Positions 4,690 through 62,799 of a stretch of DNA of 64,000 nucleotides are shown in pieces. Location: assembly GCA_934086955.1 (NCBI GenBank), contig CAKOIN010000006.1:2159-66158 (forward strand), in the 5' to 3' direction. The position numbers and the translations under genes were made by a program. Below the pieces are notes generated by a model. That model did no database searches. It saw only the letters and a program-made list of their open reading frames with translations, and was not told the DNA's origin. The DNA comes from an uncultured Bacilli bacterium. Lineage in GTDB: Bacteria > Bacillota_I > Bacilli_A > RF39 > UBA660. Each line of letters starts with the position of its first letter. Position 1 is the stretch's first letter.

Positions 4690-7332
4690 CTATTTCTTTT
4701 TTCTTTTTATATATTTATACACTTCCATTACAAAAAGTACAGGTAAAGCCATTATAAATAATGTTAACAAATGTAATGGTGGAACATCATATGTTTGTAA
4801 GAAATTAGAAAGTATAGGAACTTCCATAACTAACATTTGCAACAAAATAGTTCCAACAATAACAATTAATATGAGTGGATTAGTTTTAAAACTGTTATGA
4901 AATACACTCTTACTTTCACTTCTACAATTAAGAACATGTATATTTTGCATGAATACCATTAAAGCAAGAACATAACCACGAGCATGAGCAATCTCAAATC
5001 TTAAAACATCAACTAATAGCCACCATACACCAAATACAATTATTCCGATAAATAAACCAGACAATAATATTTGAATAAGCATTTCTTTTTCAAATAAACT
5101 TTCAGTAGTACTTCTTGGTTTTTCTTTCATAATAGTGTCAGTTTCTCTTTCAAAAGATAAAGCAATATCTTGAAGTCCATCTGTAACCAAATTTAACCAT
5201 AAAAGTTGTATCGCAACTAAAGGAATTGGTAAATTAAATGCAATAGATAATACAAAGAATAATACTTCCGCAAAACCACAAGATAAAAGCATTATAGATA
5301 CTTTTCTAATATTAGAATAAGCATTTCTTCCTTCTTCAATACCAGCTACTATTGATGAAAAATTATCATCAATAATAATCATCTTAGCAGTTTCTTTTGC
5401 AACATCAGTACCACTTCCCATTGCAACACCAATATTAGCAATCTTAATCGCAGGTGCATCATTTACACCATCACCGGTAACCGCAACAAATTCACCTTGT
5501 CTTTGTAAAGATTCAACTATTTTTAATTTTTGAATAGGTGTCACTCTTGCAAAAACAGTTTTATCTTTAACAAAATTATCAAATTTTTCATTATCATCAA
5601 TATAAAAATCTAAATCACTACCAGTACATACTTCATCTTTATTACTTGCAATTTTAAGTTCTTTAGCAATTGCATAAGCAGTAAGAGCATGATCCCCAGT
5701 AATCATAAGAACTTTAATACCTGCATTATGACACTCTGTAACAGAAGCAGCAGCTTCCTTTCTAACTGGATCTATAAATCCAACTAAACCAATAAAATTT
5801 AATTTATTTAAATCTCTTTCATCATACTTTTCTTTTTCTTTTATTTCTTTAGAACATAAAGCAATAACTCTATATCCTTGTGATGCTAATTCATCATTTT
5901 GTTTAAGAATTTTTTCTTTATCAATTTTTTTCTTAACTCCATCAATATAACTATATGAACAAAAATTCAGTATCACTTCAACTGATCCTTTTGCTGTACA
6001 ATACATCTTATCGTCCATTTTAAAGAATACAGCACTATATTTTTTTAAAGATTCATATGGAATAACATCTATTTTTTTAAATTCAGTTTCATTAGTTTTT
6101 AGTTTTCTTGATAAAGCTAAAAATGCAATATCAATAGAATCACCAAACTTTTCCCATTTACCTTTTGATTTTTCAAGCATTGCTTCATTATTAACAAGCC
6201 CTAATATTGATAAATATTTAGCATTTTTAAGTTCAGAACCAGGTTCAGGTATAACTTTACCTACATCATTATATCCATTACCATCTATATTAAATAATTC
6301 CCCATTTGGAAGCATTATTTTTTTAGCAGTTTGTTCATTTACAGTAAGTGTACCAGTTTTATCACTCGCTATAACAGTACAACTTCCTAAACTTTCAACT
6401 GAATTAAGTTTTTTAACAATAACATTCCTTTTACTCATTTTATTAGAAGCTATTGTAAGAGCAAGTGTTAATGATAAAGGTAAACCTTCTGGCATTGCAG
6501 AAACACCAAGAGCTACAACAGATAAAAATATTTCGATTGGTTCATATTGTTTATATATAAGTACAATTGCTATTATTATAGATATAACAACAATCATCAT
6601 AGTAATTTGTTTTGAAAACTTTTCCATTCTAATAGTTAATGGTGATTTACTTTCAGTAGTAGTCGTAACCTTTTCAGCTATCTTACCGACCTCAGTATCA
6701 AGAGCTGTACCACACACAATAGCGAGAGCTCTACCAGTTAAAACAGAAGTGCCAGCATATAACATATTCTTTTTAGAAATATCACCTAAACTTGCTTCAC
6801 CTTCTTCTTTAACTACAGCTATACTTTCACCAGTAAGTATTGATTCATCAACAGTTAAATTATTAGAACTTATTATTCTAGCATCAGCAGATATTTTAGT
6901 GCCAGATTCAAGAACAATAACATCTCCTGGAACAAGAAGCGAAGAATCTATTTCAACATATTCATTATCTCTTATAACTTTAGCTTTAACTTTAATTAAA
7001 TTTTTAAGAGCTTCAGCATTCTTAGTAGCTCTATATTCTTGAATTGTAGACATTACAGCATCAATTAAAATAATAAATATAATAGCCACTGCATCAAGAG
7101 GTTCACCTGCAATAAAAGATAGTATTACTGCTACAATCATAACATAAATAATCGGATCCATAAAAGATTCAATAAACACTTTAAAAATACTTTTCTTCTT
7201 TTCCTTTGGAAGTTCATTATAACCATATTCTTTTAATCTTTTGTTAGCTTCTTTATTAGATAAACCATTTAAAGAAGAATTAAGTTTCTTAATAACCTTC
7301 TTAATATCAATATATTCAAAATCCCTTTTCAC
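4690..7332 (-). CDS. P-type Ca2+-transporting ATPase (P2 type)
   Basis: DKTGTLT phosphorylation motif, TGDGVNDAPA hinge, ten TM segments and a cation-ATPase N-terminus. Confidence 0.8.
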   Translation of the reverse strand: MKRDFEYIDIKKVIKKLNSSLNGLSNKEANKRLKEYGYNELPKEKKKSIFKVFIESFMDPIIYVMIVAVILSFIAGEPLDAVAIIFIILIDAVMSTIQEYRATKNAEALKNLIKVKAKVIRDNEYVEIDSSLLVPGDVIVLESGTKISADARIISSNNLTVDESILTGESIAVVKEEGEASLGDISKKNMLYAGTSVLTGRALAIVCGTALDTEVGKIAEKVTTTTESKSPLTIRMEKFSKQITMMIVVISIIIAIVLIYKQYEPIEIFLSVVALGVSAMPEGLPLSLTLALTIASNKMSKRNVIVKKLNSVESLGSCTVIASDKTGTLTVNEQTAKKIMLPNGELFNIDGNGYNDVGKVIPEPGSELKNAKYLSILGLVNNEAMLEKSKGKWEKFGDSIDIAFLALSRKLKTNETEFKKIDVIPYESLKKYSAVFFKMDDKMYCTAKGSVEVILNFCSYSYIDGVKKKIDKEKILKQNDELASQGYRVIALCSKEIKEKEKYDERDLNKLNFIGLVGFIDPVRKEAAASVTECHNAGIKVLMITGDHALTAYAIAKELKIASNKDEVCTGSDLDFYIDDNEKFDNFVKDKTVFARVTPIQKLKIVESLQRQGEFVAVTGDGVNDAPAIKIANIGVAMGSGTDVAKETAKMIIIDDNFSSIVAGIEEGRNAYSNIRKVSIMLLSCGFAEVLFFVLSIAFNLPIPLVAIQLLWLNLVTDGLQDIALSFERETDTIMKEKPRSTTESLFEKEMLIQILLSGLFIGIIVFGVWWLLVDVLRFEIAHARGYVLALMVFMQNIHVLNCRSESKSVFHNSFKTNPLILIVIVGTILLQMLVMEVPILSNFLQTYDVPPLHLLTLFIMALPVLFVMEVYKYIKRKKK

Positions 7333-7413: not shown

Positions 7414-8472
7414 AACTGTAATCTTAAAAGTTTCTTTTTTATCATTTCTATTAACAACTATATCTATTTTATTACCTGGATTATATTTATACAAATAATA
7501 TCTAAGTTCAGCCACTGTTTTAACATCATAATCACCTATTTTAACAATAACATCACCTTTTTTAAGTCCAGTATTATAACATGGTCCATCATCCATTATA
7601 TCAACTATTACAACTCCACTTGTAATATCAGATTTTAAAGTTATATTAGACTTACTAAAATCATATGCAGAAGAAACATTAACCATTTTAATACCCAAGT
7701 ATGATCTTTTTATCTCTTCTTTATTTACTATTTTATTAGCATATAAAACAGCATCTTCAATAGGTATTGCAAACCCCATTCCTTCAACCTGAGACTGTAC
7801 AAGTTTCATTGAATTAATCCCTATAACATCACCATTTGCATTACATAACGGTCCTCCACTATTTCCTGGATTTATAGCTGCATCTGTTTGCATAACATTC
7901 ATAATCCAATCATTAGAAGAATTAACAGAAACATTAACAAGTCTATTTTTACCACTAAGAATGCCTCTTGTAACAGTTCCATAATATTCACTACTAATTG
8001 GTGAACCAATTGTAAAAACTGTATCACCCACATTAATAGCATCTGAGCTACCAAGAGTCGCTACTTTACTTACATATTTCTTATCAATTTTAATTACAGC
8101 AATATCAGCATATTCATCATCACCAATAACACTTGCATCAACAATATCACCACTCATTAAAATAACTTTAATACTAGTAGCTCCCTCAATAACATGAGAA
8201 TTAGTCATGATATATCCTTCTTCATTATAAACAAATCCAGAACCTATACTGTCTACTTTATTTTTTTTATAATTTTGTACAACCACTACAGAATCATAAA
8301 CATTAGAAATACCAGTTGATAAACCAATTTCGCTAACAACAATCTTTTTATTAACAACATCAGTAGTAGTACTTCCAATATTTATTAAAGTTGGATAATA
8401 ATTAATTAAAATAAACATACATAAACATCCAACAAAAAATGTAGCAATAGATATTAGTATAGTCTTTTTCAT
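7396..8472 (-). CDS. htrA: HtrA/DegP-family serine protease with PDZ domain
   Basis: N-terminal TM, trypsin-like fold with GNSGGPL active-site motif, C-terminal PDZ. Confidence 0.8.
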   Translation of the reverse strand: MKKTILISIATFFVGCLCMFILINYYPTLINIGSTTTDVVNKKIVVSEIGLSTGISNVYDSVVVVQNYKKNKVDSIGSGFVYNEEGYIMTNSHVIEGATSIKVILMSGDIVDASVIGDDEYADIAVIKIDKKYVSKVATLGSSDAINVGDTVFTIGSPISSEYYGTVTRGILSGKNRLVNVSVNSSNDWIMNVMQTDAAINPGNSGGPLCNANGDVIGINSMKLVQSQVEGMGFAIPIEDAVLYANKIVNKEEIKRSYLGIKMVNVSSAYDFSKSNITLKSDITSGVVIVDIMDDGPCYNTGLKKGDVIVKIGDYDVKTVAELRYYLYKYNPGNKIDIVVNRNDKKETFKITVGTSNN

Positions 8473-8480
8473 ATACCCTC

Positions 8481-9410
8481 CTATTCTAAATAAGATATTT
8501 GTCTATAATTATCAGGAAATCCCATTCTATATAAAACTTTATTAATATCAATAACTTTAAGTTTAGATGATAACCAATCTATTTCATATTCAAGCTCATT
8601 CATCATCATCTTAAAATCAGTCGCAGTAAGCATTTCCTTTAATATTATTATTAAAGCAAAAATATCATGTTTACCATAAATATATTCATCTTCTACTCTT
8701 GGTATATCTAATGCACTATGAAATCTAGTATCATTTATACTCTTTTGAGTTTCATGATTATATAAAATATCTTCATGAGCACATAAATTTCTATAATTAG
8801 ATAATATAGATAAATAACTTTCAAAACTATCAGCATCAACATTATAATAAGAAGCTATTTCTTCTCTATCTTCTTCTTTAAGAATTGTAAATAACTCACT
8901 CATAAGTCCAAAACTAAGAACCTTTACTCCTACCCACATAGGAATATAACCATAATTATTAATATAGTGACTAGTAGCTTGATGTTGATATCCGTTTATT
9001 CTAATTTGTCTCTTTAATTTTCTAATCAAATCATTTATTTGTCTTGCCTTGTCTTTACTTCTATTAAAATTATTAACATTTAAATAATCTTTTTCTTTAT
9101 AACCATATTTCTTACTTAAAACATAACTATATATAGATTTATAGTTATTTTCTACTATCAAAATATTCTTAAAAACAATATTTCTAAAATATCTATCAAA
9201 AGTAAACAAAGCATATAATTCTTCAAAAGTAGTTCCATCAATAAATCTTTTAGTACCATTTATTAAAAATGGAGAACGATAACCATTAAGAAAAAAATAA
9301 TTTTCTCTTAAAAGTATTTCGCTAGCTTTATCATAATCATTTATTACCAAACCTTTACTTCTTAATATTTCTAACTGTTCATCAATAGTTTTAAATACCT
9401 TAGCAGCCAT
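8481..9410 (-). CDS. Abi_2 family abortive-infection protein (AbiD/AbiF-like)
   Basis: N-terminus KTIDEQLEILRSKGLVINDYDKASEILLRENYFFLNGYRSPF matches the Abi_2 hallmark (EQ..LL...GL.I.D...A...L....YY.L.GY). Length about 300 aa. Confidence 0.6.
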   Translation of the reverse strand: MAAKVFKTIDEQLEILRSKGLVINDYDKASEILLRENYFFLNGYRSPFLINGTKRFIDGTTFEELYALFTFDRYFRNIVFKNILIVENNYKSIYSYVLSKKYGYKEKDYLNVNNFNRSKDKARQINDLIRKLKRQIRINGYQHQATSHYINNYGYIPMWVGVKVLSFGLMSELFTILKEEDREEIASYYNVDADSFESYLSILSNYRNLCAHEDILYNHETQKSINDTRFHSALDIPRVEDEYIYGKHDIFALIIILKEMLTATDFKMMMNELEYEIDWLSSKLKVIDINKVLYRMGFPDNYRQISYLE

Positions 9411-21824: not shown

Positions 21825-21939
21825 ATTTTCAACCCCTTATATGAATAAATTTATTTAAAGTCAAAATATAATACCACATTTTTTTAAAAAGTCAAATCAA
21901 TTAAAAAAGACACTCATTTTACAAAATTCAATGAATATG

Positions 21940-22400
21940 ATATAATGTAGATGTATGGAGCATTATGCTAGTCAAACATACCACTAGAAGATGGGGCTAA
22001 AAATCCATCAATTGTGTAAAAATGATACTTTATATATTTTGCTTCTTTCGCCCAGATTGGGGTGGATATATAATTTTAGATTTAAGGAAAAGATGTAATG
22101 GCATATATCCGAATCCTTATATCAAATCGAAGAACACGAACACACATGTCGTGAGTGAATTATTGGGATAGAAATTGAAAAATAATTTGCAAAAGCGAAT
22201 AAAAGTGATTTATGTTTGTTTGGGAAAACCTCTAGTATGCCTATATTATAAGGATTGAAGTGCGGACTAAGTGGTGATCGAGTGATCATTATGGCAACAA
22301 ATGGTTAATTCTTTTAAAGAGAAATCGCCCTAGGGTAACCGAAGGTAAGAATTAGAGAAATTCAACTCGACCAAAGCCGTAAAATTAATTTATAATATTC
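21940..22400 (+). ncRNA. Candidate large structured ncRNA (OLE-RNA-like)
   Basis: About 450 nt, ORF-free and clearly GC-enriched relative to the flanks. Many local helices (GGATATAT...ATATATCC, CCCTAGGG, GATCgagtGATC). Immediately followed by a roughly 20 kDa 4-TM protein, the arrangement known for ole-oapA. Boundaries are approximate. Confidence 0.3.
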
Positions 22401-22425
22401 CATACACAAAACCAAAGGGAGTTAA

Positions 22426-22957: not shown

Positions 22958-23209
22958 CTATTTTTTTTGATTTAATCTTTCAGTAAATAAATTACCAACA
23001 GTTTCTAATACTTGAACATTATCAATATCAACTAAGATAATATTACCATTTATATCTTTCTTACCTTCAACAATTATATAATTATTAGTTATGCCTTCTT
23101 TTTCATTATCTACTTGAAGCCCCATAAGATAATTTTTTCCTTCATATGACATTTCATCTAATACATAATATTCAAGGCCATTATCTAATGTTATTACTTT
23201 ATCTATCAC
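22958..23209 (-). CDS. DUF1292-like small acidic protein
   Basis: The pattern ITL.DNG.E..YVLDE...EGKNYL....D.E.EG...VEG..D.NGNIILVD resembles the YrzB/DUF1292 family. Confidence 0.4.
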   Translation of the reverse strand: MIDKVITLDNGLEYYVLDEMSYEGKNYLMGLQVDNEKEGITNNYIIVEGKKDINGNIILVDIDNVQVLETVGNLFTERLNQKK

Positions 23210-24828
23210 AATGTAGGTCCTCCCATTCCACTAACTAATTCACTAGCTGAAATCCAAGCTTGATCTTTTCCTGCTTTATCCATTACAGAAACTGCTACAC
23301 TACTTGGATCTATACCATTTGCAGCACAGAATTCTTCAATTGATAAACCGTTAGTATTTATAACTTGACCTATTGATCCATCTGGATTAACTGCGGCAAA
23401 TCTTCCAAAAATCGAATCACCATTTACATATTGAGATAATAATGGTTTAGTTTCAATTCCCATAACAGCTCTATCAGAACTAATATGACCAACACTTACA
23501 TTATAGTCTCCTACTTCACTACCTATTCTAATACCATCATACTGAGAAACTGGATCTACAGCTGAAGTTGGTTGAGGTGTAGTTACTGTTGGAGTTGGTT
23601 GAGGCGGAGTTACCGTTGGATTTGGATTAGTAATATTAGGTGCAGGTTCTGGATTTGGAGTTGGCTCTACTGCGGCTGGGGTTGCTGCATTATGAGCTTG
23701 AATCAAATTATGAACAGTACTTGCAACAGTAAGAGTTCCACCAGTAATAATCGCAGAATTAATCATCCAAGACATATCTCTTAGACCTTCTTCTGTCCTA
23801 AACTTATTCTTAACCCTATCAACTAAACCTTTTAATCCAGGTCTAGGTTCAACAACAGTATTTATTTTACTTTGCAATCCAAGTCGATTCAACTCAGCTA
23901 TTTCTTTTCTTCTTTTATTAATGAATTTGTTAGCTATACCACCTGCAAGTGACATAACACCTACACCAAGTGGACCAGCTGTAAAGAATACAGCAGCACC
24001 AAGTCCAATACCTGCTGCTACATGTAATATTGTTTTCCATGTAACTTTTGGCTTATTAGACTTAACTTTAGGTCGTTCTGGTTCATCCGGCTCTGGTTCT
24101 TCTGGACCTGGTCCATCTGGACCTTCAGGTGGGATTGGAGGAATTGGATCTCCTATATCTACAGGTCCATTACCGCCTGGACCTCCCGGGCCATCTGGAC
24201 CCTCAGGACCAGGTCCCTCTGGGCCAGGTCCATCAGGGACACCATTCCCAGGACCTTCAGGACCATCATGAGTTGGCTCAACAGGAGTTCTATCCACAGT
24301 CATATTCTTTGGTATACCACCATATTTAAGTTCTCTCATTCTTTGCATTATATGACTTTTTTCAACCATTAAATCATTAAGAGCTAATTCATTCTCTTCA
24401 ATTCTTTTTCTAGCATCTTCTTGTAATTTAGCTAATGATGCTGGCATCTCATGACCTTCAGCCATCTGTACACTAGCAATATTAGTATCCTTTTCAATAG
24501 CTTTTTCTAAATCTTTAATTTGTCTTGATACTTCTATTCTTCTTTTACCAAGTTCTAAATACTCAGCTTCCTTCTTTTCAATAATAACATTAAACTTATT
24601 AGCATTCTCATATGCTATATCAGTTATTCTATCAATTCTAGCTTTTTGTTCACTACTAAGTTCATTATCATTTTCAATTTGAAAAGCTTCATTTTTAACA
24701 TTATCAAAAATCTCAAATCTTTTTCTAAGTTCTTCAAGACCATAATATTCAATATCAAGTTCAGCCAAATCTTCTAATTCAATAGTTTCTTGCAAAACTT
24801 GTTCTAATCTATCCATTCTAACATTCAT
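23206..24828 (-). CDS. Membrane protein with coiled-coil N-domain, collagen-like Pro/Gly-rich linkers and a globular C-domain
   Basis: The GPEGPGNGVPDGPGPEGPGPEGPDGPGGPGG low-complexity tract is visible in the DNA as GGN/CCN repeats. There is one strong TM segment (ILHVAAGIGLGAAVFFTAGPLGVGV) and a second PT-rich linker. Confidence 0.4.
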   Translation of the reverse strand: MNVRMDRLEQVLQETIELEDLAELDIEYYGLEELRKRFEIFDNVKNEAFQIENDNELSSEQKARIDRITDIAYENANKFNVIIEKKEAEYLELGKRRIEVSRQIKDLEKAIEKDTNIASVQMAEGHEMPASLAKLQEDARKRIEENELALNDLMVEKSHIMQRMRELKYGGIPKNMTVDRTPVEPTHDGPEGPGNGVPDGPGPEGPGPEGPDGPGGPGGNGPVDIGDPIPPIPPEGPDGPGPEEPEPDEPERPKVKSNKPKVTWKTILHVAAGIGLGAAVFFTAGPLGVGVMSLAGGIANKFINKRRKEIAELNRLGLQSKINTVVEPRPGLKGLVDRVKNKFRTEEGLRDMSWMINSAIITGGTLTVASTVHNLIQAHNAATPAAVEPTPNPEPAPNITNPNPTVTPPQPTPTVTTPQPTSAVDPVSQYDGIRIGSEVGDYNVSVGHISSDRAVMGIETKPLLSQYVNGDSIFGRFAAVNPDGSIGQVINTNGLSIEEFCAANGIDPSSVAVSVMDKAGKDQAWISASELVSGMGGPTL

Positions 24829-26999: not shown

Positions 27000-27152
27000 C
27001 CCCTTTTGGCACCTATAAATAATACACTATTTTTACGATATTTTCAAGAAAAATTTAAATTTTTTTAAATTATCACTGACAATAATAAATTATCATTTAA
27101 AGTAAATGGTTAAAAAAATTAAATAATGGCAAAATATTACTAGGAGATAAAT

Positions 27153-27413
27153 ATGGAAAATGCAAGCATATTTAAAGAAGAAAAAGATCTTTACACTATT
27201 ATTGGAAAAAATATTAGATACTATAGAAAATTATACAGTCTCAATAAAAAAGAGATGACACAAGAAGCACTCGCAGAACTGGCTAATGTTTCTACATCTC
27301 TTATAGGAAACCTTGAAAGCAAAAAAACTACACAAGGTATAAGTATATATAATTTATATAAAATAAGTAAAATATTAAATGTACCTATTGAATATTTTTT
27401 TATTGATCGATAG
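27153..27413 (+). CDS. XRE-family HTH transcriptional regulator (paralog 1)
   Basis: Cro/C1-type HTH: MTQEALAELANVSTSLIGNLE...ISIYNLYKISKILNV. Confidence 0.6.
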   Translation: MENASIFKEEKDLYTIIGKNIRYYRKLYSLNKKEMTQEALAELANVSTSLIGNLESKKTTQGISIYNLYKISKILNVPIEYFFIDR

Positions 27414-27678
27414 TAATCTTTTCAAAGAATTTATCAATTGAAACTCCAAGTACAATAGATATTTTATAAAGTGATAATAAAGACAATCCTTCACTTCCTT
27501 TTGTACTTTCAAATTTTCTAATAAACTCTGGAGATAGACCAATATCAACAGCCAATTGTTCTTGTGTTATACCATTAATTTTTCTATATTTAATTACATT
27601 ATAAGCAATTGTTTCAATAATATTATCATCAAAATCAAAATTTCTTTTAAATTTAGTCATAAAATCACCTAAATACAT
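27400..27678 (-). CDS. XRE-family HTH transcriptional regulator (paralog 2)
   Basis: ITQEQLAVDIGLSPEFIRKFE...LSLLSLYKISIVLGV. Its 3' end overlaps paralog 1 by 14 nt. Confidence 0.6.
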   Translation of the reverse strand: MYLGDFMTKFKRNFDFDDNIIETIAYNVIKYRKINGITQEQLAVDIGLSPEFIRKFESTKGSEGLSLLSLYKISIVLGVSIDKFFEKITIDQ

Positions 27679-27759
27679 TTTATATTATTTAATAAATAAA
27701 TTATGTAATGTTACACTATACAAAATATCTATATTATTCTATAATTAAATTAGGTGAAA

Positions 27760-28004
27760 TTATGAATCAAGATAAGTTAAATAATATAATTGGTAAAAAT
27801 ATAAAAAAATATAGATTAGCTTATAAATATGAAAAAATAACTCAAGAAAAACTAGCAGAATTAATAAATGTTTCAGTTTCACTAATAAGTAGTTTAGAAA
27901 GTAATAAAACAAAGAAAGGAATAAGTATAAATAATTTATATAAAATTTCAATAGTCTTAAATGTTCCAATCAGTAAGTTTTTTGAGGAAGATAATGAAAA
28001 ATAA
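27760..28004 (+). CDS. XRE-family HTH transcriptional regulator (paralog 3)
   Basis: ITQEKLAELINVSVSLISSLE...ISINNLYKISIVLNV. The likely start is MNQDKL, preceded by AGGTGA. The ORF-track 5' extension was discounted. Confidence 0.55.
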
Positions 28005-28527
28005 AAATGAGATATTATTAAATGAATATATAATTAATAGTTCTGATTTATATGAATTAGTAAATAATAAAGATTTTGATCTTAAAACAAAATATCTAGA
28101 TTTAACTAAAAAAATAAATCCAAAAAGTAAACTAATTCATAAGAATAATATAACATTACTTGAACTAATTATATTTAATATAGATAATTATATTTCATTT
28201 TTAAAACAAAATCTAATGATTAATCAACTTGAAATAAGATATATAGCATACTTAACTATATATGAAAATAATTACCTATTTGAAGAAAAATATTATTATG
28301 ACAATATAGAATATTTTAATAACTTGTTTAAAAAAATATTAATGAGTAAATATAATAAAAATGTTAATATCTTGTTAAAATATAAAAATATCAATATATA
28401 TGATTATGATACACTATTAGAAAAAATAAACAAAAATAAAAATAGAGCATATATATATTTTGAAGATATAAATCAAAATAATGCTCTATATTATTTAAAT
28501 ATTTATGAATATAATGATTCTATTTAA
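27994..28527 (+). CDS. Hypothetical Asn/Tyr-rich protein overlapping the XRE paralog 3 stop
   Basis: ATG at about 27994 after GAGGAAG. The overlap with the upstream XRE gene suggests an operon. No recognisable domain. Confidence 0.3.
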   Translation: MKNKNEILLNEYIINSSDLYELVNNKDFDLKTKYLDLTKKINPKSKLIHKNNITLLELIIFNIDNYISFLKQNLMINQLEIRYIAYLTIYENNYLFEEKYYYDNIEYFNNLFKKILMSKYNKNVNILLKYKNINIYDYDTLLEKINKNKNRAYIYFEDINQNNALYYLNIYEYNDSI

Positions 28528-29599
28528 CAAATATATCATTAGCACTCTTATAACAGAAAGTAACTCTATTAGTTCCTTTCTTTTTTTCTTTAATTAAATA
28601 ACCTTTCTCAACTAATTTATTTAATACTTTATTAACAGAATTAATATGTAGATTACAATCATTAACAATATCAGCAGTAGTAAAAACAATTCTTCTAAGA
28701 ATTTCTGGATATACCTTATAAATAGTACTACCACCTATTTCAGTTTTAAATTCTTCTAAATCTCTTTTATATAATTTATTTAACTTTTTAATCTTTTTAA
28801 TATTTAAATTACATTGTTCAATAATACATTGAAGCATAAATTTAACAAAATGCATAACATCATTATCTTCTGTACTAAGCATAGTAAAATATGTATTTCT
28901 TAAATTATCCATACTTTCACTAATAAATAATATTGGAGGTTCATTCTTATAAAATGAATATTGTATTGGAATAATTATTCTACCCATCTTACCATTATTA
29001 GACATATATGGATGTATCTTTTCAAACTGATAATGAGTTAAAATAGTACTAATAAATGATTCATCAGTTTTAGAATTAATATAATCACATAAATTCTTCA
29101 TAAGTGAATTAAGCTCAGTATGAACTGGTGGTATAAACGATACACTAGATCCAGCTATACCTGGTTTTAATAAATAAGTCTGAGTTTTTCTCAAATGCCC
29201 ACTACCCTTAGTAGAATTATCTTTTTTAAGACCAGTTAACAATGTTTTATTGATTTTATTAAATACATCTACTGAAAAACCATTTTTATTACTAGCTGTC
29301 AAACCAACTAATAAACTTTTTTTAATATTAGTATATAAAATAGAAGTATTACTTTTATTCATATATGTCATATAAAACATATCTTCTTTGTTAACTTTAG
29401 CATTATCAATCTTAAATGAATAAAATATATCATTAATAAATGCATTTTCTAAAAAACACTTATAATCATAAGACATATTCTTTAAATACCCTTTATATTC
29501 TCCATAAGCTTCTTTAGCTTCACATAATAAATTTAAAATATCATTTGGTATATTAATTTCATAAGGTAATTTCTTAGCTTTATATGGTTCCATAATCAT
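28520..29599 (-). CDS. Fic/Doc-family protein with divergent Fic motif and C-terminal winged-helix
   Basis: HPYMSNNGKMGR aligns to HPFx[DE]GNGRxxR with His retained. C-terminal segment (LVEKGYLIKEKKKGTNRVTF) resembles a wHTH. Confidence 0.5.
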   Translation of the reverse strand: MIMEPYKAKKLPYEINIPNDILNLLCEAKEAYGEYKGYLKNMSYDYKCFLENAFINDIFYSFKIDNAKVNKEDMFYMTYMNKSNTSILYTNIKKSLLVGLTASNKNGFSVDVFNKINKTLLTGLKKDNSTKGSGHLRKTQTYLLKPGIAGSSVSFIPPVHTELNSLMKNLCDYINSKTDESFISTILTHYQFEKIHPYMSNNGKMGRIIIPIQYSFYKNEPPILFISESMDNLRNTYFTMLSTEDNDVMHFVKFMLQCIIEQCNLNIKKIKKLNKLYKRDLEEFKTEIGGSTIYKVYPEILRRIVFTTADIVNDCNLHINSVNKVLNKLVEKGYLIKEKKKGTNRVTFCYKSANDIFVK

Positions 29600-29670
29600 A
29601 TCCTCCTAACAAAATATTAACACAATTTCAAATAAAAATATACATATTTAATTAAAAATATGTATATTAA

Positions 29671-30048
29671 TTAATAAACTTTAGGAAAATCCATTAAACC
29701 TTCCGTCTTTCCTTCTCTCCAATATATTTTGTTATCTTTAACTTCAAAACTATAAGTTACTTTATATTTATAATCATCATCACTTTTTTGATAATAAAAT
29801 ACTAGTTCAGACATACCATCATTATTACTCTCAAATACAAAAGATGTATCATCATGACTTACTTCTTTTAAACTATCGTTATTTATTTCATAAGTCCAAT
29901 CTTTACTTTCATCAAGTTCTTTATAATCAATAGTGACAGTATCTTCAAATACACTTAATAGTTTATCATCAAGTTTTGGTTCATAAAACATAATACCAAC
30001 AAGTCCTACAATAGTTAAAACAAATATAATTACAAATCTCATTAACAC
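29671..30048 (-). CDS. Small secreted or membrane-anchored hypothetical protein
   Basis: N-terminal signal-anchor. No domain recognised. Confidence 0.3.
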   Translation of the reverse strand: MLMRFVIIFVLTIVGLVGIMFYEPKLDDKLLSVFEDTVTIDYKELDESKDWTYEINNDSLKEVSHDDTSFVFESNNDGMSELVFYYQKSDDDYKYKVTYSFEVKDNKIYWREGKTEGLMDFPKVY

Positions 30049-30570
30049 TCCTTAATAAACAAAAAGCAACCAGTCCTGATAAAACTTGATTGCTTCGAGT
30101 TTCGAAAAAACTAATTATGAATCATTTATTTTATAATAATAATTATAAAATAAATACTTCTAAATATTATCAGTATTTAGCATAATTACTTATCATTTTG
30201 AGTTTTTCTTTCTCAACGATATATCATTTGTCCTTAGTAGATAAGTATTCTATTTCTTAAATTAATAAGACTATTTATTATTTATATATAATAAGTAATA
30301 TTAATTTATAAATAAGATAGATACATAAATTTATAATAAATTAATATTATAAATAAACATATAATTGAAATATAAATTTTAATATACCAAATATAAATAA
30401 TGAAATAAATATAGAATTTTTTCACTAAAATAATTTAGATTATATTTTATTATATAATATATAAATAATTAAATTTAAATACCACTAATAATTTATATAA
30501 CCAATTATCTATTGGACAATATTATTATATGAATATTATTATCAAATGTCAATACTTTTTTAAAAAAAAT

Positions 30571-62605: not shown

Positions 62606-62695
62606 CAATAAATAACAAAAATAACACAGATAAAAATTCTTAACAAAAAAATAAAATTATTATTGTAAAAGAATATAACTTATGATAATATATAC

Positions 62696-62776
62696 ATGTG
62701 CAACAAGGTTTAGTGAACCAGGTCAGAGTTGGAAGACAGCAGCCTTAAGCTTTTAATCTTGTGTGCACATTTTATT
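62696..62776 (+). ncRNA. ffs: Small-type SRP RNA (4.5S/scRNA)
   Basis: ACCAGGUCAGAGUUGGAAGACAGCAGCC matches the domain IV consensus ACCAGGUCAGGUCCGGAAGGAAGCAGCC, including the GGAA tetraloop. Closed by an ATGTGCA..CAAGG / CTTG..TGCACAT stem and followed by a T-run. Located next to tadA/dnaX as in Bacillus. Confidence 0.55.
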
Positions 62777-62799
62777 TATATTAAAATACGAAAAGGTGT

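Follow-up and report, generated by a model that had tools for sequence, protein, structure and literature searches.

The locus described here poses the question of what a Fic protein with a non-canonical active site and a C-terminal winged helix-turn-helix (wHTH) domain does at a constant chromosomal position, beside a set of small XRE-type regulators whose number varies between species. It lies on a 64-kb stretch of DNA (64,000 nucleotides) from an uncultured Bacilli bacterium (contig CAKOIN010000006.1); this full stretch is referred to below as the window, and all coordinates are window positions. In our judgement there is a somewhat better than even prospect that the locus encodes a lineage-fixed, autoregulated Fic-wHTH protein whose remodelled pocket probably no longer AMPylates, situated behind a transcription attenuator of the PGK-motif RNA type and next to a variable cassette of XRE genes and an orphan open reading frame (ORF). 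Within this reading the pairing of proteins with binding sites, the loss of AMPylation and the control by RNA are deduced from comparative sequence analysis. The genes of the locus, with lengths in amino acids (aa), are as follows.

27153-27413, plus strand: HTH1, XRE/Cro-C1 type regulator, 86 aa (Pfam HTH_3, 39.3 bits)
27400-27660, minus strand: HTH2, XRE regulator, 86 aa (Pfam HTH_3, 33.9 bits)
27762-28004, plus strand: HTH3, XRE regulator, 80 aa (Pfam HTH_3, 40.6 bits)
27994-28527, plus strand: ORF4, orphan protein of 177 aa, with a GAGGA ribosome-binding site (RBS) inside HTH3
28520-29593, minus strand: Fic, SoFic-type Fic protein with a C-terminal wHTH, 357 aa, non-canonical active site
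29671-30042, minus strand: p123, membrane-anchored beta-rich protein, 123 aa, first gene of the p123-Fic unit

Gene starts were set from RBSs, the starts of orthologs and independent gene calls for the same species. The three XRE genes, ORF4 and Fic were all found where the initial annotation had placed them, with small corrections to their coordinates. HTH2 starts at MTKFKR behind an AGGTGA RBS, replacing a longer 92-aa ORF, and Fic starts at MEPYK, the second ATG, which was the one chosen by gene callers, giving 357 aa against 359 aa for the ORF. The overlap between HTH3 and the following gene was also borne out; it measures 11 nt and recurs in relatives. ORF4 has 177 aa rather than 178. The start of p123 is the ATG at 30042, behind an AAGGAG RBS. 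The 3' ends of the convergent pairs HTH1/HTH2 and ORF4/Fic overlap by 14 nt (27400-27413) and 8 nt (28520-28527), respectively. These convergent overlaps are kept in relatives, and as they leave no space for terminators, transcription from the two sides may interfere. The p123 gene, the PGK-motif leader RNA and a palindrome upstream of Fic adjoin the region just outside 27153-29599 and had not featured in the initial annotation.

The identity of the Fic protein was supported by every profile search. It matched Pfam Fic (PF02661) with 40.6 bits against a cut-off of 24 (E 4.8e-10) and Fic chains in the PDB with E-values of 4e-10 to 1e-6, the SoFic chains (3eqx/3zcn) among them at E 1.6e-8. The PADLOC SoFic model (PDLC03963) was matched at E 5.9e-58, with residues 4-351 aligned to positions 7-353 of the 361 in the model. 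The C-terminal winged helix gave sub-threshold TrmB/HTH matches and is contained in this full-length SoFic match. Two short segments of the protein are central to what follows.

28979-29014, minus strand: Fic motif HPYMSNNGKMGR, residues 196-207 of the 359-aa ORF
28610-28654, minus strand: wHTH recognition-helix block NLHINSVNKVLNKLV, the lowest-entropy 15-aa block of the family

As had been noted from the sequence at the outset, the Fic motif is degenerate. The canonical AMPylating signature HPFx[D/E]GNGRxxR, with its acid and both Arg residues, is not present in HPYMSNNGKMGR, nor is the class II inhibitory motif [S/T]xxxE[G/N], the aligned residues being SFKIDN. Relatives were sought among 1.84 billion cluster representatives, and the statistics for the clade were taken from 112 homologs of less than 80% identity. 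The clade consensus is HPY[VIL][ST]GNGK[ILM]GR, compared with HPFxDGNGRxGR in canonical relatives. Of these homologs, 110 have the catalytic His and 110 the Gly before the last Arg; Pro, Tyr, Asn, Gly and the final Arg are invariant. At the position of the acid, 109 of the 112 have Ser (97) or Thr (12), followed by Gly (91), Asn (8) or Glu (8), and the first Arg is replaced by Lys in 102 and by Leu, Val or Ile in eight, with Arg remaining in only two. The inhibitory Glu is Asp in all but one homolog (111/112; clade consensus SFKID[GN]), and the equivalent of SoFic Y241 is Phe in 108. The change of Gly to Asn in the motif is particular to the nearest relatives of the window; the other changes are clade-wide, which indicates a selected state and not a local accident. 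The flap (residues 136-160) is well conserved, and the recognition-helix block has an entropy of 0.25 bits, compared with 0.72 for the motif block. At 25-30% identity the relatives have the canonical S/TxxIEGT inhibitory helix and HPFxDGNGRxGR, while the clusters closer to the clade (31-41% identity) are degenerate as well (HPYMIGNGIVGR, HPYDKGNGRIAR, QPYNNGNGRMGR).

Experimental work on EcSofic indicates what such substitutions may mean: an H194A mutant has neither catalytic activity nor toxicity, and toxicity is greatly lowered by R202A or Y237A (PMC12249575). Our protein retains the corresponding His, with Lys in place of the Arg and Phe in place of the Tyr. In FICD, a bifunctional Fic enzyme, the inhibitory Glu is needed for de-AMPylation (PMC6408439). 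Canonical Mg-dependent AMPylation by the Fic protein is, on these sequence comparisons, unlikely. The initial suggestion of a changed or lost AMPylation chemistry was thus a reasonable one, strengthened by the clade-wide nature of the changes and by the loss of the inhibitory Glu. A separate observation concerns a distant relative (L135; L-numbers denote loci of relatives), in which two Fic-wHTH genes (6186-7238 and 8001-9068) lie 760 nt apart on one contig. One is canonical (HPFADGNGRISR, SNKIEG) and the other lacks the catalytic His (QPYNNGNGRMGR), and the palindromes upstream of the two genes differ.

Class II Fic-wHTH proteins are the largest class of Fic proteins, few of which have a known role, and SoFic and CccR have recently been shown to combine enzymatic and DNA-binding functions. 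The closest likeness of the locus Fic is to SoFic/MloA of Shewanella oneidensis and to EcSofic, which have the same length and the same architecture of an N-terminal dimerisation helix, Fic core and C-terminal wHTH. SoFic shares the catalytic His, GNG and last Arg with the clade. It differs in its motif (HPFIDGNGRTGR, against HPY[VI]SGNGK[IL]GR), in its inhibitory helix (SxxIEG, against SFKID[GN]) and in Y241, which is Phe in the clade. The locus Fic, which is 23-30% identical to canonical members, occupies a fixed chromosomal core context, whereas SoFic is patchy or found in defence islands. The full-length similarity that marks a SoFic defence system (PADLOC; Millman et al. 2022) was found, and the patchy or defence-island distribution was not. 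CccR of Yersinia pseudotuberculosis is likewise a Fic-wHTH dimer that represses itself via palindromes; unlike the locus Fic, which has a degenerate motif and no secretion context, it is a canonical AMPylase (target FtsZ) and is secreted by a type VI secretion system. More generally, the Fic fold is kept with a changed signature motif in Doc (HxFxDANKR), AnkX and the degenerate FIC domains of Bartonella Bep proteins, and there the changed motif goes with changed or lost AMPylation. We found no description in the searched literature of a Ser/Lys motif combined with a Glu-to-Asp inhibitory helix in a SoFic-type wHTH protein.

The DNA upstream of Fic provided the evidence that carries the autoregulatory part of our reading. 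The gap between p123 and Fic measures 71 nt and contains two elements.

29639-29666, no strand assigned: palindrome TATACAT-N14-ATGTATA, 28 bp, with a T-run after it on the sense strand; candidate operator of Fic and/or terminator of p123
29614-29624, minus strand: TGTGTTAATAT (consensus TGTGATAAT), putative extended -10 element of Fic, at the same place in about 20 species

The palindrome is about 45 nt upstream of the Fic start codon. We scanned 1.04 Mb of fetched related loci and the window for the pattern TA[TC]ACAT-N8-16-ATGT[AG]TA and found 32 occurrences, 31 of which were directly upstream of Fic, always with N14. The arms are nearly invariant and the centre is variable; two of the three arm variants are symmetric. 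The 31 include the palindrome of L058, a locus without neighbouring XRE genes. Remote homologs of 37-41% identity, which have unrelated upstream genes, have related palindromes 40-44 nt before the ATG: AATACAC-N14-GTGTATT in L128 and AATACAC-N18-GTGTATT in L130 and L132. In the remote homolog of L135 there are instead three GTATAC repeats, and its recognition helix is different as well (HHNSILVTLNKL), so that among the remote homologs the half-site changes where the recognition helix changes. The canonical Fic-wHTH gene of L135 has TGATACAT-N11-ATGTATCA interleaved with TTGACA and TATAAT, with no T-run.

These features resemble those of characterized Fic-wHTH proteins. CccR auto-represses via palindromes near its -35 and -10 elements; a distance of 70 A separates its DNA-binding helices, and it regulates independently of its toxic activity (PMC9755527). 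For the SoFic dimer, specific binding was seen in the 100 bp that precede its own start codon (bioRxiv 10.64898/2026.07.09.737422), a range that includes the position of the palindrome before the locus Fic. The half-site centres of that palindrome are 21 bp, or about 71 A, apart, which is two helical turns; it overlaps the presumed Fic -35, and its 7-bp arms are separated by 14 bp, compared with 26 bp between the CccR boxes. The locus has both a wHTH domain and a palindrome in the promoter region of the same gene, from which we infer binding. Since the palindrome occurs almost exclusively upstream of Fic genes, its geometry fits the CccR and SoFic dimers and both precedents act at their own promoters, autoregulation by a Fic-wHTH dimer via this palindrome is the best-supported mechanism for the locus. 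Transcripts from the upstream gene may end at this palindrome as well, the two roles being compatible.

A second question was whether the locus is an accessory island, as the initial annotation had proposed. We scanned one genome per species and mapped the genes by tblastn. The order hydrogenase-p123-Fic-ORF4-HTH3-HTH2-HTH1-typA was present in about 30 species-level metagenome-assembled genomes (MAGs) and in further metagenome contigs. The MAGs came from human, rabbit, goat, cattle and chicken guts, and the relatives, recorded under the names Bacilli, Tenericutes, Mollicutes, Erysipelotrichaceae and Clostridium sp. CAG:524, form a very AT-rich, uncultured lineage. The same order ([FeFe]-hydrogenase, a gene of 122-126 aa, Fic, ORF4, one or more XRE genes and typA) was found where Fic is 88%, 70% and 65% identical, and ortholog identity falls to 58% for Fic and 30% for p123. 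All three XRE genes in the same orientations occurred in at least 14 genomes, and the organisation was identical on four contigs that represent the window's own species in different samples. The locus was present in all strains and species sampled, and spoIIR is near it. Ratios of non-synonymous to synonymous substitution (dN/dS) between the window and the 88% relative were 0.10 for Fic, 0.09 for HTH1 and 0.06-0.10 across HTH1-3, 0.22 for ORF4, 0.20 for p123, 0.07 for the hydrogenase and 0.05 for TypA. All eight compared genes are under purifying selection (dN/dS 0.05-0.22). A decaying or pseudogene Fic was ruled out by its own ratio and by an ORF that is intact in all relatives.

The part that varies between species is the segment between Fic and typA, which contains zero, one, two or three XRE genes, with or without ORF4. 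In L058 and L108 the whole segment is absent and Fic is directly before typA; L003 has ORF4 and HTH2 only, HTH2 being the sole XRE gene retained; L006 has ORF4, HTH3 and HTH2; and L013, L086 and L096 have kept the three XRE genes with no ORF4 detectable by tblastn. Such differences point to gain and loss in place, with no mobile island. There were no integrase or phage genes beside the locus and its neighbours are housekeeping genes, so the initial view that it is not a prophage was correct; the window is ordinary chromosome. The proposal of an accessory island did not hold, given the shared order in about 30 species and several samples of one species, the low dN/dS values and the lack of close phage relatives. 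The core conservation in relatives that had been named as evidence against it was largely what we found, even though the locus has no housekeeping annotation. The locus is vertically inherited and core to an uncultured gut Bacilli lineage. Two observations on its borders may be added. In L003 (4707-8963), four inserted genes (for an ATP-grasp protein, MurT, a GatD-like amidotransferase and an aminotransferase) separate the hydrogenase from the PGK RNA/p126 gene, making the hydrogenase side the more plastic boundary. In three loci a degenerate SoFic-type Fic gene directly precedes typA/bipA in the same orientation, at a distance of about 70-95 nt (L128, 3589-6530; L058, 3954-6903; L108, 6194-8000).

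Transcription of Fic may also depend on what lies upstream of p123, where three further elements were identified.

30524-30552, minus strand: sigma-70 promoter TTGACA-17-TATAAT, a 12/12 consensus match, upstream of the leader
30160-30252, minus strand: PGK-motif RNA (Rfam RF03040, cis-regulatory), 82.1 bits against a gathering score of 50.8, full model 1-92
30061-30095, minus strand: intrinsic terminator hairpin and U-run, GC-containing, directly before the p123 RBS

As in the Rfam PGK motif, a full-length match upstream of a gene is followed by a terminator, and the terminator stems show compensatory changes across species. The RNA was found at the same place in L001 and L003, and L006 has two copies, one before p123 and the other directly before Fic; duplication before Fic was seen in six species. 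No PGK RNA was found at the remote Fic loci, which makes the link between RNA and Fic specific to this lineage. A pattern scan of the species genomes gave at least 119 PGK RNA loci, the counts from it being lower bounds. Among the 105 downstream genes listed there were at least 27 p123, 14 of an unknown family of about 120 aa, 13 MurG, 12 phosphoglycerate kinase, seven Cys/His-rich proteins of about 90 aa, six Fic, four LtaS-like proteins and four membrane proteins (348 aa). Genes for dCMP deaminase, LepA and HU were also seen downstream (at least two each among the matches listed). Here and in at least 33 related instances the PGK motif thus precedes p123 or Fic and not phosphoglycerate kinase, the gene found in at least 12 of the 105 cases, and the text of the motif's source paper contains no description of it. 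The heterogeneity of the downstream genes (envelope, glycolysis, possibly spore-related) suggests a global rather than a pathway-specific signal.

A terminator-like hairpin followed in 89 of the 121 distinct PGK RNA instances among the matches listed. We also observed that the terminator loop UUAUCAG is the exact complement of the P3 loop CUGAUAA in 99 of the 121 instances listed, against 1.6 expected, in a scan whose pattern itself demanded the P3 loop sequence. Such complementarity suggests an attenuator of the kissing-loop or alternative-pairing kind, larger than the 92-nt Rfam model, and the p123-Fic unit would accordingly be predicted to be under the control of a transcription-attenuation leader.

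By tblastn the orthologs of p123 were upstream of Fic, or on loci ending short of Fic, and a few Fic loci had no detectable p123. Its AlphaFold2 (AF2) model has an N-terminal transmembrane helix and eight strands, with a predicted local distance difference test score (pLDDT) of 76. We considered a chagasin-type peptidase inhibitor, for which there were weak hints that were not confirmed: sub-threshold matches to Pfam I42 (chagasin-type) in eight of 15 homologs (best E 0.065), and EhICP2 among the top Foldseek matches by probability (0.87-0.89) but with E 0.5-0.8 and a TM-score of about 0.4. The p123 family profile did not find chagasin among the PDB sequences.

On the other side of Fic, HTH1, HTH2 and HTH3 all passed the Pfam HTH_3 (PF01381) cut-off of 23 bits. 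The initial annotation was right to call them paralogs but had put their identity at 40-45%, and we measured 42% for HTH1/HTH2, 61% for HTH1/HTH3 and 51% for HTH2/HTH3. HTH2 is the most conserved of the three, its orthologs being 77-94% identical, compared with 81-96% for TypA; those of HTH1 are 67-88% identical. HTH2 appears to be the ancestral member, and HTH1 and HTH3 later duplicates. An alignment of 17 species and a promoter scan delineated the candidate control regions.

27661-27761, no strand assigned: divergent HTH2/HTH3 control region, from the 17-species alignment and promoter scan, with a predicted function
27715-27722, no strand assigned: invariant ACTATACA, containing TATAGT, the putative HTH2 -10 (minus strand), and TATACA, the putative HTH3 -35 (plus strand)
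27740-27745, plus strand: invariant TATAAT, putative HTH3 -10, from the 17-species alignment
27070-27097, no strand assigned: operator-like repeats TTATCAC...TTATCAT in the typA-HTH1 spacer, kept in 16 HTH1-carrying species
27019-27047, minus strand: typA promoter (TTGAAA-17-TATTAT), from the promoter scan, given for context

The divergent spacer, in which an operator search had been suggested, contains conserved overlapping promoters and an inverted repeat, TTACAT-N17-ATGTAA, in the HTH2 leader, the left arm of which is degenerate in the window. In several species the repeats of the typA-HTH1 spacer form a true palindrome, TATCACT-N-AGTGATA, and repeats of this TATCAC type are absent from species without HTH1, which is consistent with HTH1 as their likely binder. 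We tried a single common operator for all sites and found no support for it, the TACAT-core half-sites of the HTH2/HTH3 spacer being separated by N17 and those before Fic by N14; a search of the window for TACAT-N8-20-ATGTA was barely above chance, with eight found against 3.6 expected. Regulation of typA by the XRE proteins was also set aside: the typA promoter (consensus CTTGAAAA-N17-TGTATTAT) is conserved throughout, in species that have XRE genes and in those that lack them, while the repeats occur only with HTH1.

Given the conserved overlapping divergent promoters and inverted repeats, the likeness of the XRE trio to a phage immunity switch is a fair structural analogy. There is no phage context. 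With lambda CI/Cro the trio shares small Cro/C1 HTH proteins, divergent overlapping promoters and inverted repeats, including the TATCAC-type half-sites of the HTH1 spacer. A lambda-type switch has two dissimilar repressors, in contrast to the three paralogs here, which are vertically inherited (HTH2 at 77-94% identity) with no prophage.

ORF4 is a real protein that is translationally coupled to HTH3. It has 46 homologs, found only within this lineage, with invariant His, Asp, Tyr and Lys positions, and its AF2 model is all-helical (pLDDT 92.7; predicted template modelling score, pTM, 0.89). It had no profile match in Pfam, NCBIfam, PADLOC or PHROG and no fold match in the PDB or BFVD; tblastn gave no match in L013, L086 and L096, where the XRE genes are kept, nor in L058 and L108, which have none. 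An XRE gene overlapping a downstream ORF is the layout of an XRE-led type II toxin-antitoxin (TA) operon, and the HTH3/ORF4 bicistron, with its conserved 11-nt overlap, has that layout. A partner with a toxin family or toxin fold was not found in ORF4, which matches no toxin or phage protein.

Based on these data, we propose that the locus consists of two units: p123-Fic behind its leader RNA, and the XRE/ORF4 segment between Fic and typA. Transcription of the former probably starts at the consensus promoter and passes through the PGK-motif RNA, after which the terminator would decide on read-through into p123. The palindrome overlaps the -35 region of the putative extended -10 promoter of Fic, and the dimeric SoFic/CccR-type Fic-wHTH protein most likely binds there and regulates its own gene. 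The Fic protein itself appears to have lost the residues of Mg-dependent AMPylation (the acid to Ser, the first Arg to Lys, the ATP-contacting Tyr to Phe and the inhibitory Glu to Asp) while the His, GNG anion hole, last Arg and target-binding flap are retained in its clade. It would thus probably be a module that binds a ligand or partner, or else a heavily altered enzyme, and not a canonical AMPylase toxin. The XRE/ORF4 segment is best pictured as a self-regulating set of Cro/C1-like repressors that has probably grown by duplication, with two types of operator-like repeat and with ORF4 as its only visible non-regulatory output.

Several of our own observations weigh against parts of this proposal. 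The conservation of the His, the Ser/Thr at the acid position, GNG, the last Arg and the flap fits an altered but retained catalysis as well as it fits a pseudo-enzyme, and Ser and Thr can ligate Mg2+ in other nucleotide-binding folds. The T-run after the palindrome on the sense strand could make it merely the terminator of the upstream gene, and symmetric changes in its arms would be expected of an RNA hairpin just as much as of a dimer operator. Its binders might instead be XRE proteins, given that the HTH2/HTH3 spacer too has TACAT-core half-sites. Lastly, should Fic indeed have a promoter of its own downstream of the palindrome, control of Fic by the PGK RNA would be limited to read-through.

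One alternative, which we consider unlikely, is that Fic is still an enzyme with an altered chemistry (another nucleotide or metal, a Doc-like phosphotransfer, or demodification only), that its target is a translational GTPase such as EF-Tu or the paralogous TypA/BipA encoded next door, and that DNA binding serves only to autoregulate an activity that could be toxic. The retained motif residues and flap, the consistent Ser/Thr at the acid position and the dN/dS of Fic speak for such an enzyme. So does the genomic setting: in L058 and L108, Fic directly precedes typA in the same orientation, a 41%-identical homolog with entirely different upstream genes (L128) is also upstream of typA, and SoFic AMPylates switch I of EF-Tu (bioRxiv 10.64898/2026.07.09.737422). 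It has to contend with changes at four ATP/Mg-contacting positions, including the eight homologs in which the Lys is in turn replaced by Leu, Val or Ile, and with an Asp at the position where FICD requires Glu for de-AMPylation. Three other related clusters do not adjoin typA, so that the adjacency may be inherited synteny, and typA keeps its own conserved promoter. We regard a functional link between Fic and typA as a lead and not as evidence. A bolder reading, which we think quite improbable, would have a SoFic-type defence or toxin enzyme domesticated across the lineage into a fixed regulator, its Ser/Lys/Asp pocket either sensing a phosphate-containing ligand or modifying a translational GTPase by some new chemistry, typA being the neighbour that is conserved, and wired to the palindromic operator and to an orphan PGK RNA with a kissing-loop attenuator.

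The locus could instead be a SoFic-type abortive-infection or TA module, in line with the toxin-like module of the initial annotation, with Fic and/or ORF4 as toxins and the XRE proteins or ORF4 as antitoxins or regulators released on phage attack. The strong PADLOC SoFic match, the overlapping HTH3-ORF4 bicistron typical of an XRE-antitoxin/toxin pair, the weak matches of the XRE proteins to PADLOC control-protein and CapH models and the lack of a tblastn match to ORF4 in several species that keep the XRE genes are all compatible with it, as is the description of SoFic as a defence gene and of a small downstream antitoxin for EcSofic (PMC12249575). Its genomic context disfavours this reading, and we rate it as very unlikely: the locus sits at a fixed position between housekeeping genes in about 30 species with no flanking defence or mobile genes, it has no close phage or mobile relatives (phage MloA matches are 23-29% identical), residues needed for EcSofic toxicity are substituted, HTH2 is conserved nearly like TypA, which is unusual for antitoxins, and ORF4 matches no toxin family. 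Least probable of all, to the point that we give it little credence, is that the palindrome is merely a Rho-independent terminator of the upstream gene, that Fic has no role at its own promoter and that the neighbours are kept together by synteny. A hairpin with a sense-strand T-run in most species, the compensatory nature of two of the three arm variants and the synteny of the whole hydrogenase-typA region would all be expected on that account. Arms that are almost invariant at 58-70% Fic identity, with variable loops and a spacing of exactly N14, are atypical for terminators, and the same half-site precedes remote Fic homologs behind unrelated upstream genes. The palindrome of the canonical homolog, moreover, is inside a promoter and has no T-run, and CccR and SoFic are experimental precedents for binding.

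If Fic is an autoregulator with a remodelled pocket, as we propose, the clade would represent a natural separation-of-function experiment in which the DNA-binding half is kept and the catalytic and auto-inhibitory residues are rewritten, and it hints at a scaffold role once AMPylation has been removed. Automated calls of a "SoFic defence system" in gut MAGs would then include core genes that are probably not AMPylases. The analysis also provides a concrete operator prediction, TATACAT-N14-ATGTATA, and extends the set of genes behind the PGK RNA to p123, Fic, murG and ltaS-like genes, which may help to find the signal that is sensed.

Some other features of the window lie outside the locus. Directly downstream of typA there is a 540-aa ORF (23206-24828, minus strand) with a Pro/Gly/Glu-rich repeat (PGPEGPGPEGPDGPGGPGG...) that raises the local GC content to 43%, compared with about 25% for the genome; it had no convincing Pfam match, and L001 has a 565-aa gene at the same place. 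No tRNA genes were found across the 64 kb. A bacterial small signal recognition particle RNA was identified at 62687-62783 (plus strand, 61 bits), and an OLE RNA (RF01071) at 21939-22419 (plus strand, 219 bits), which is syntenic in L001, L003 and L006 beside a gene for a YgjV-like membrane protein.

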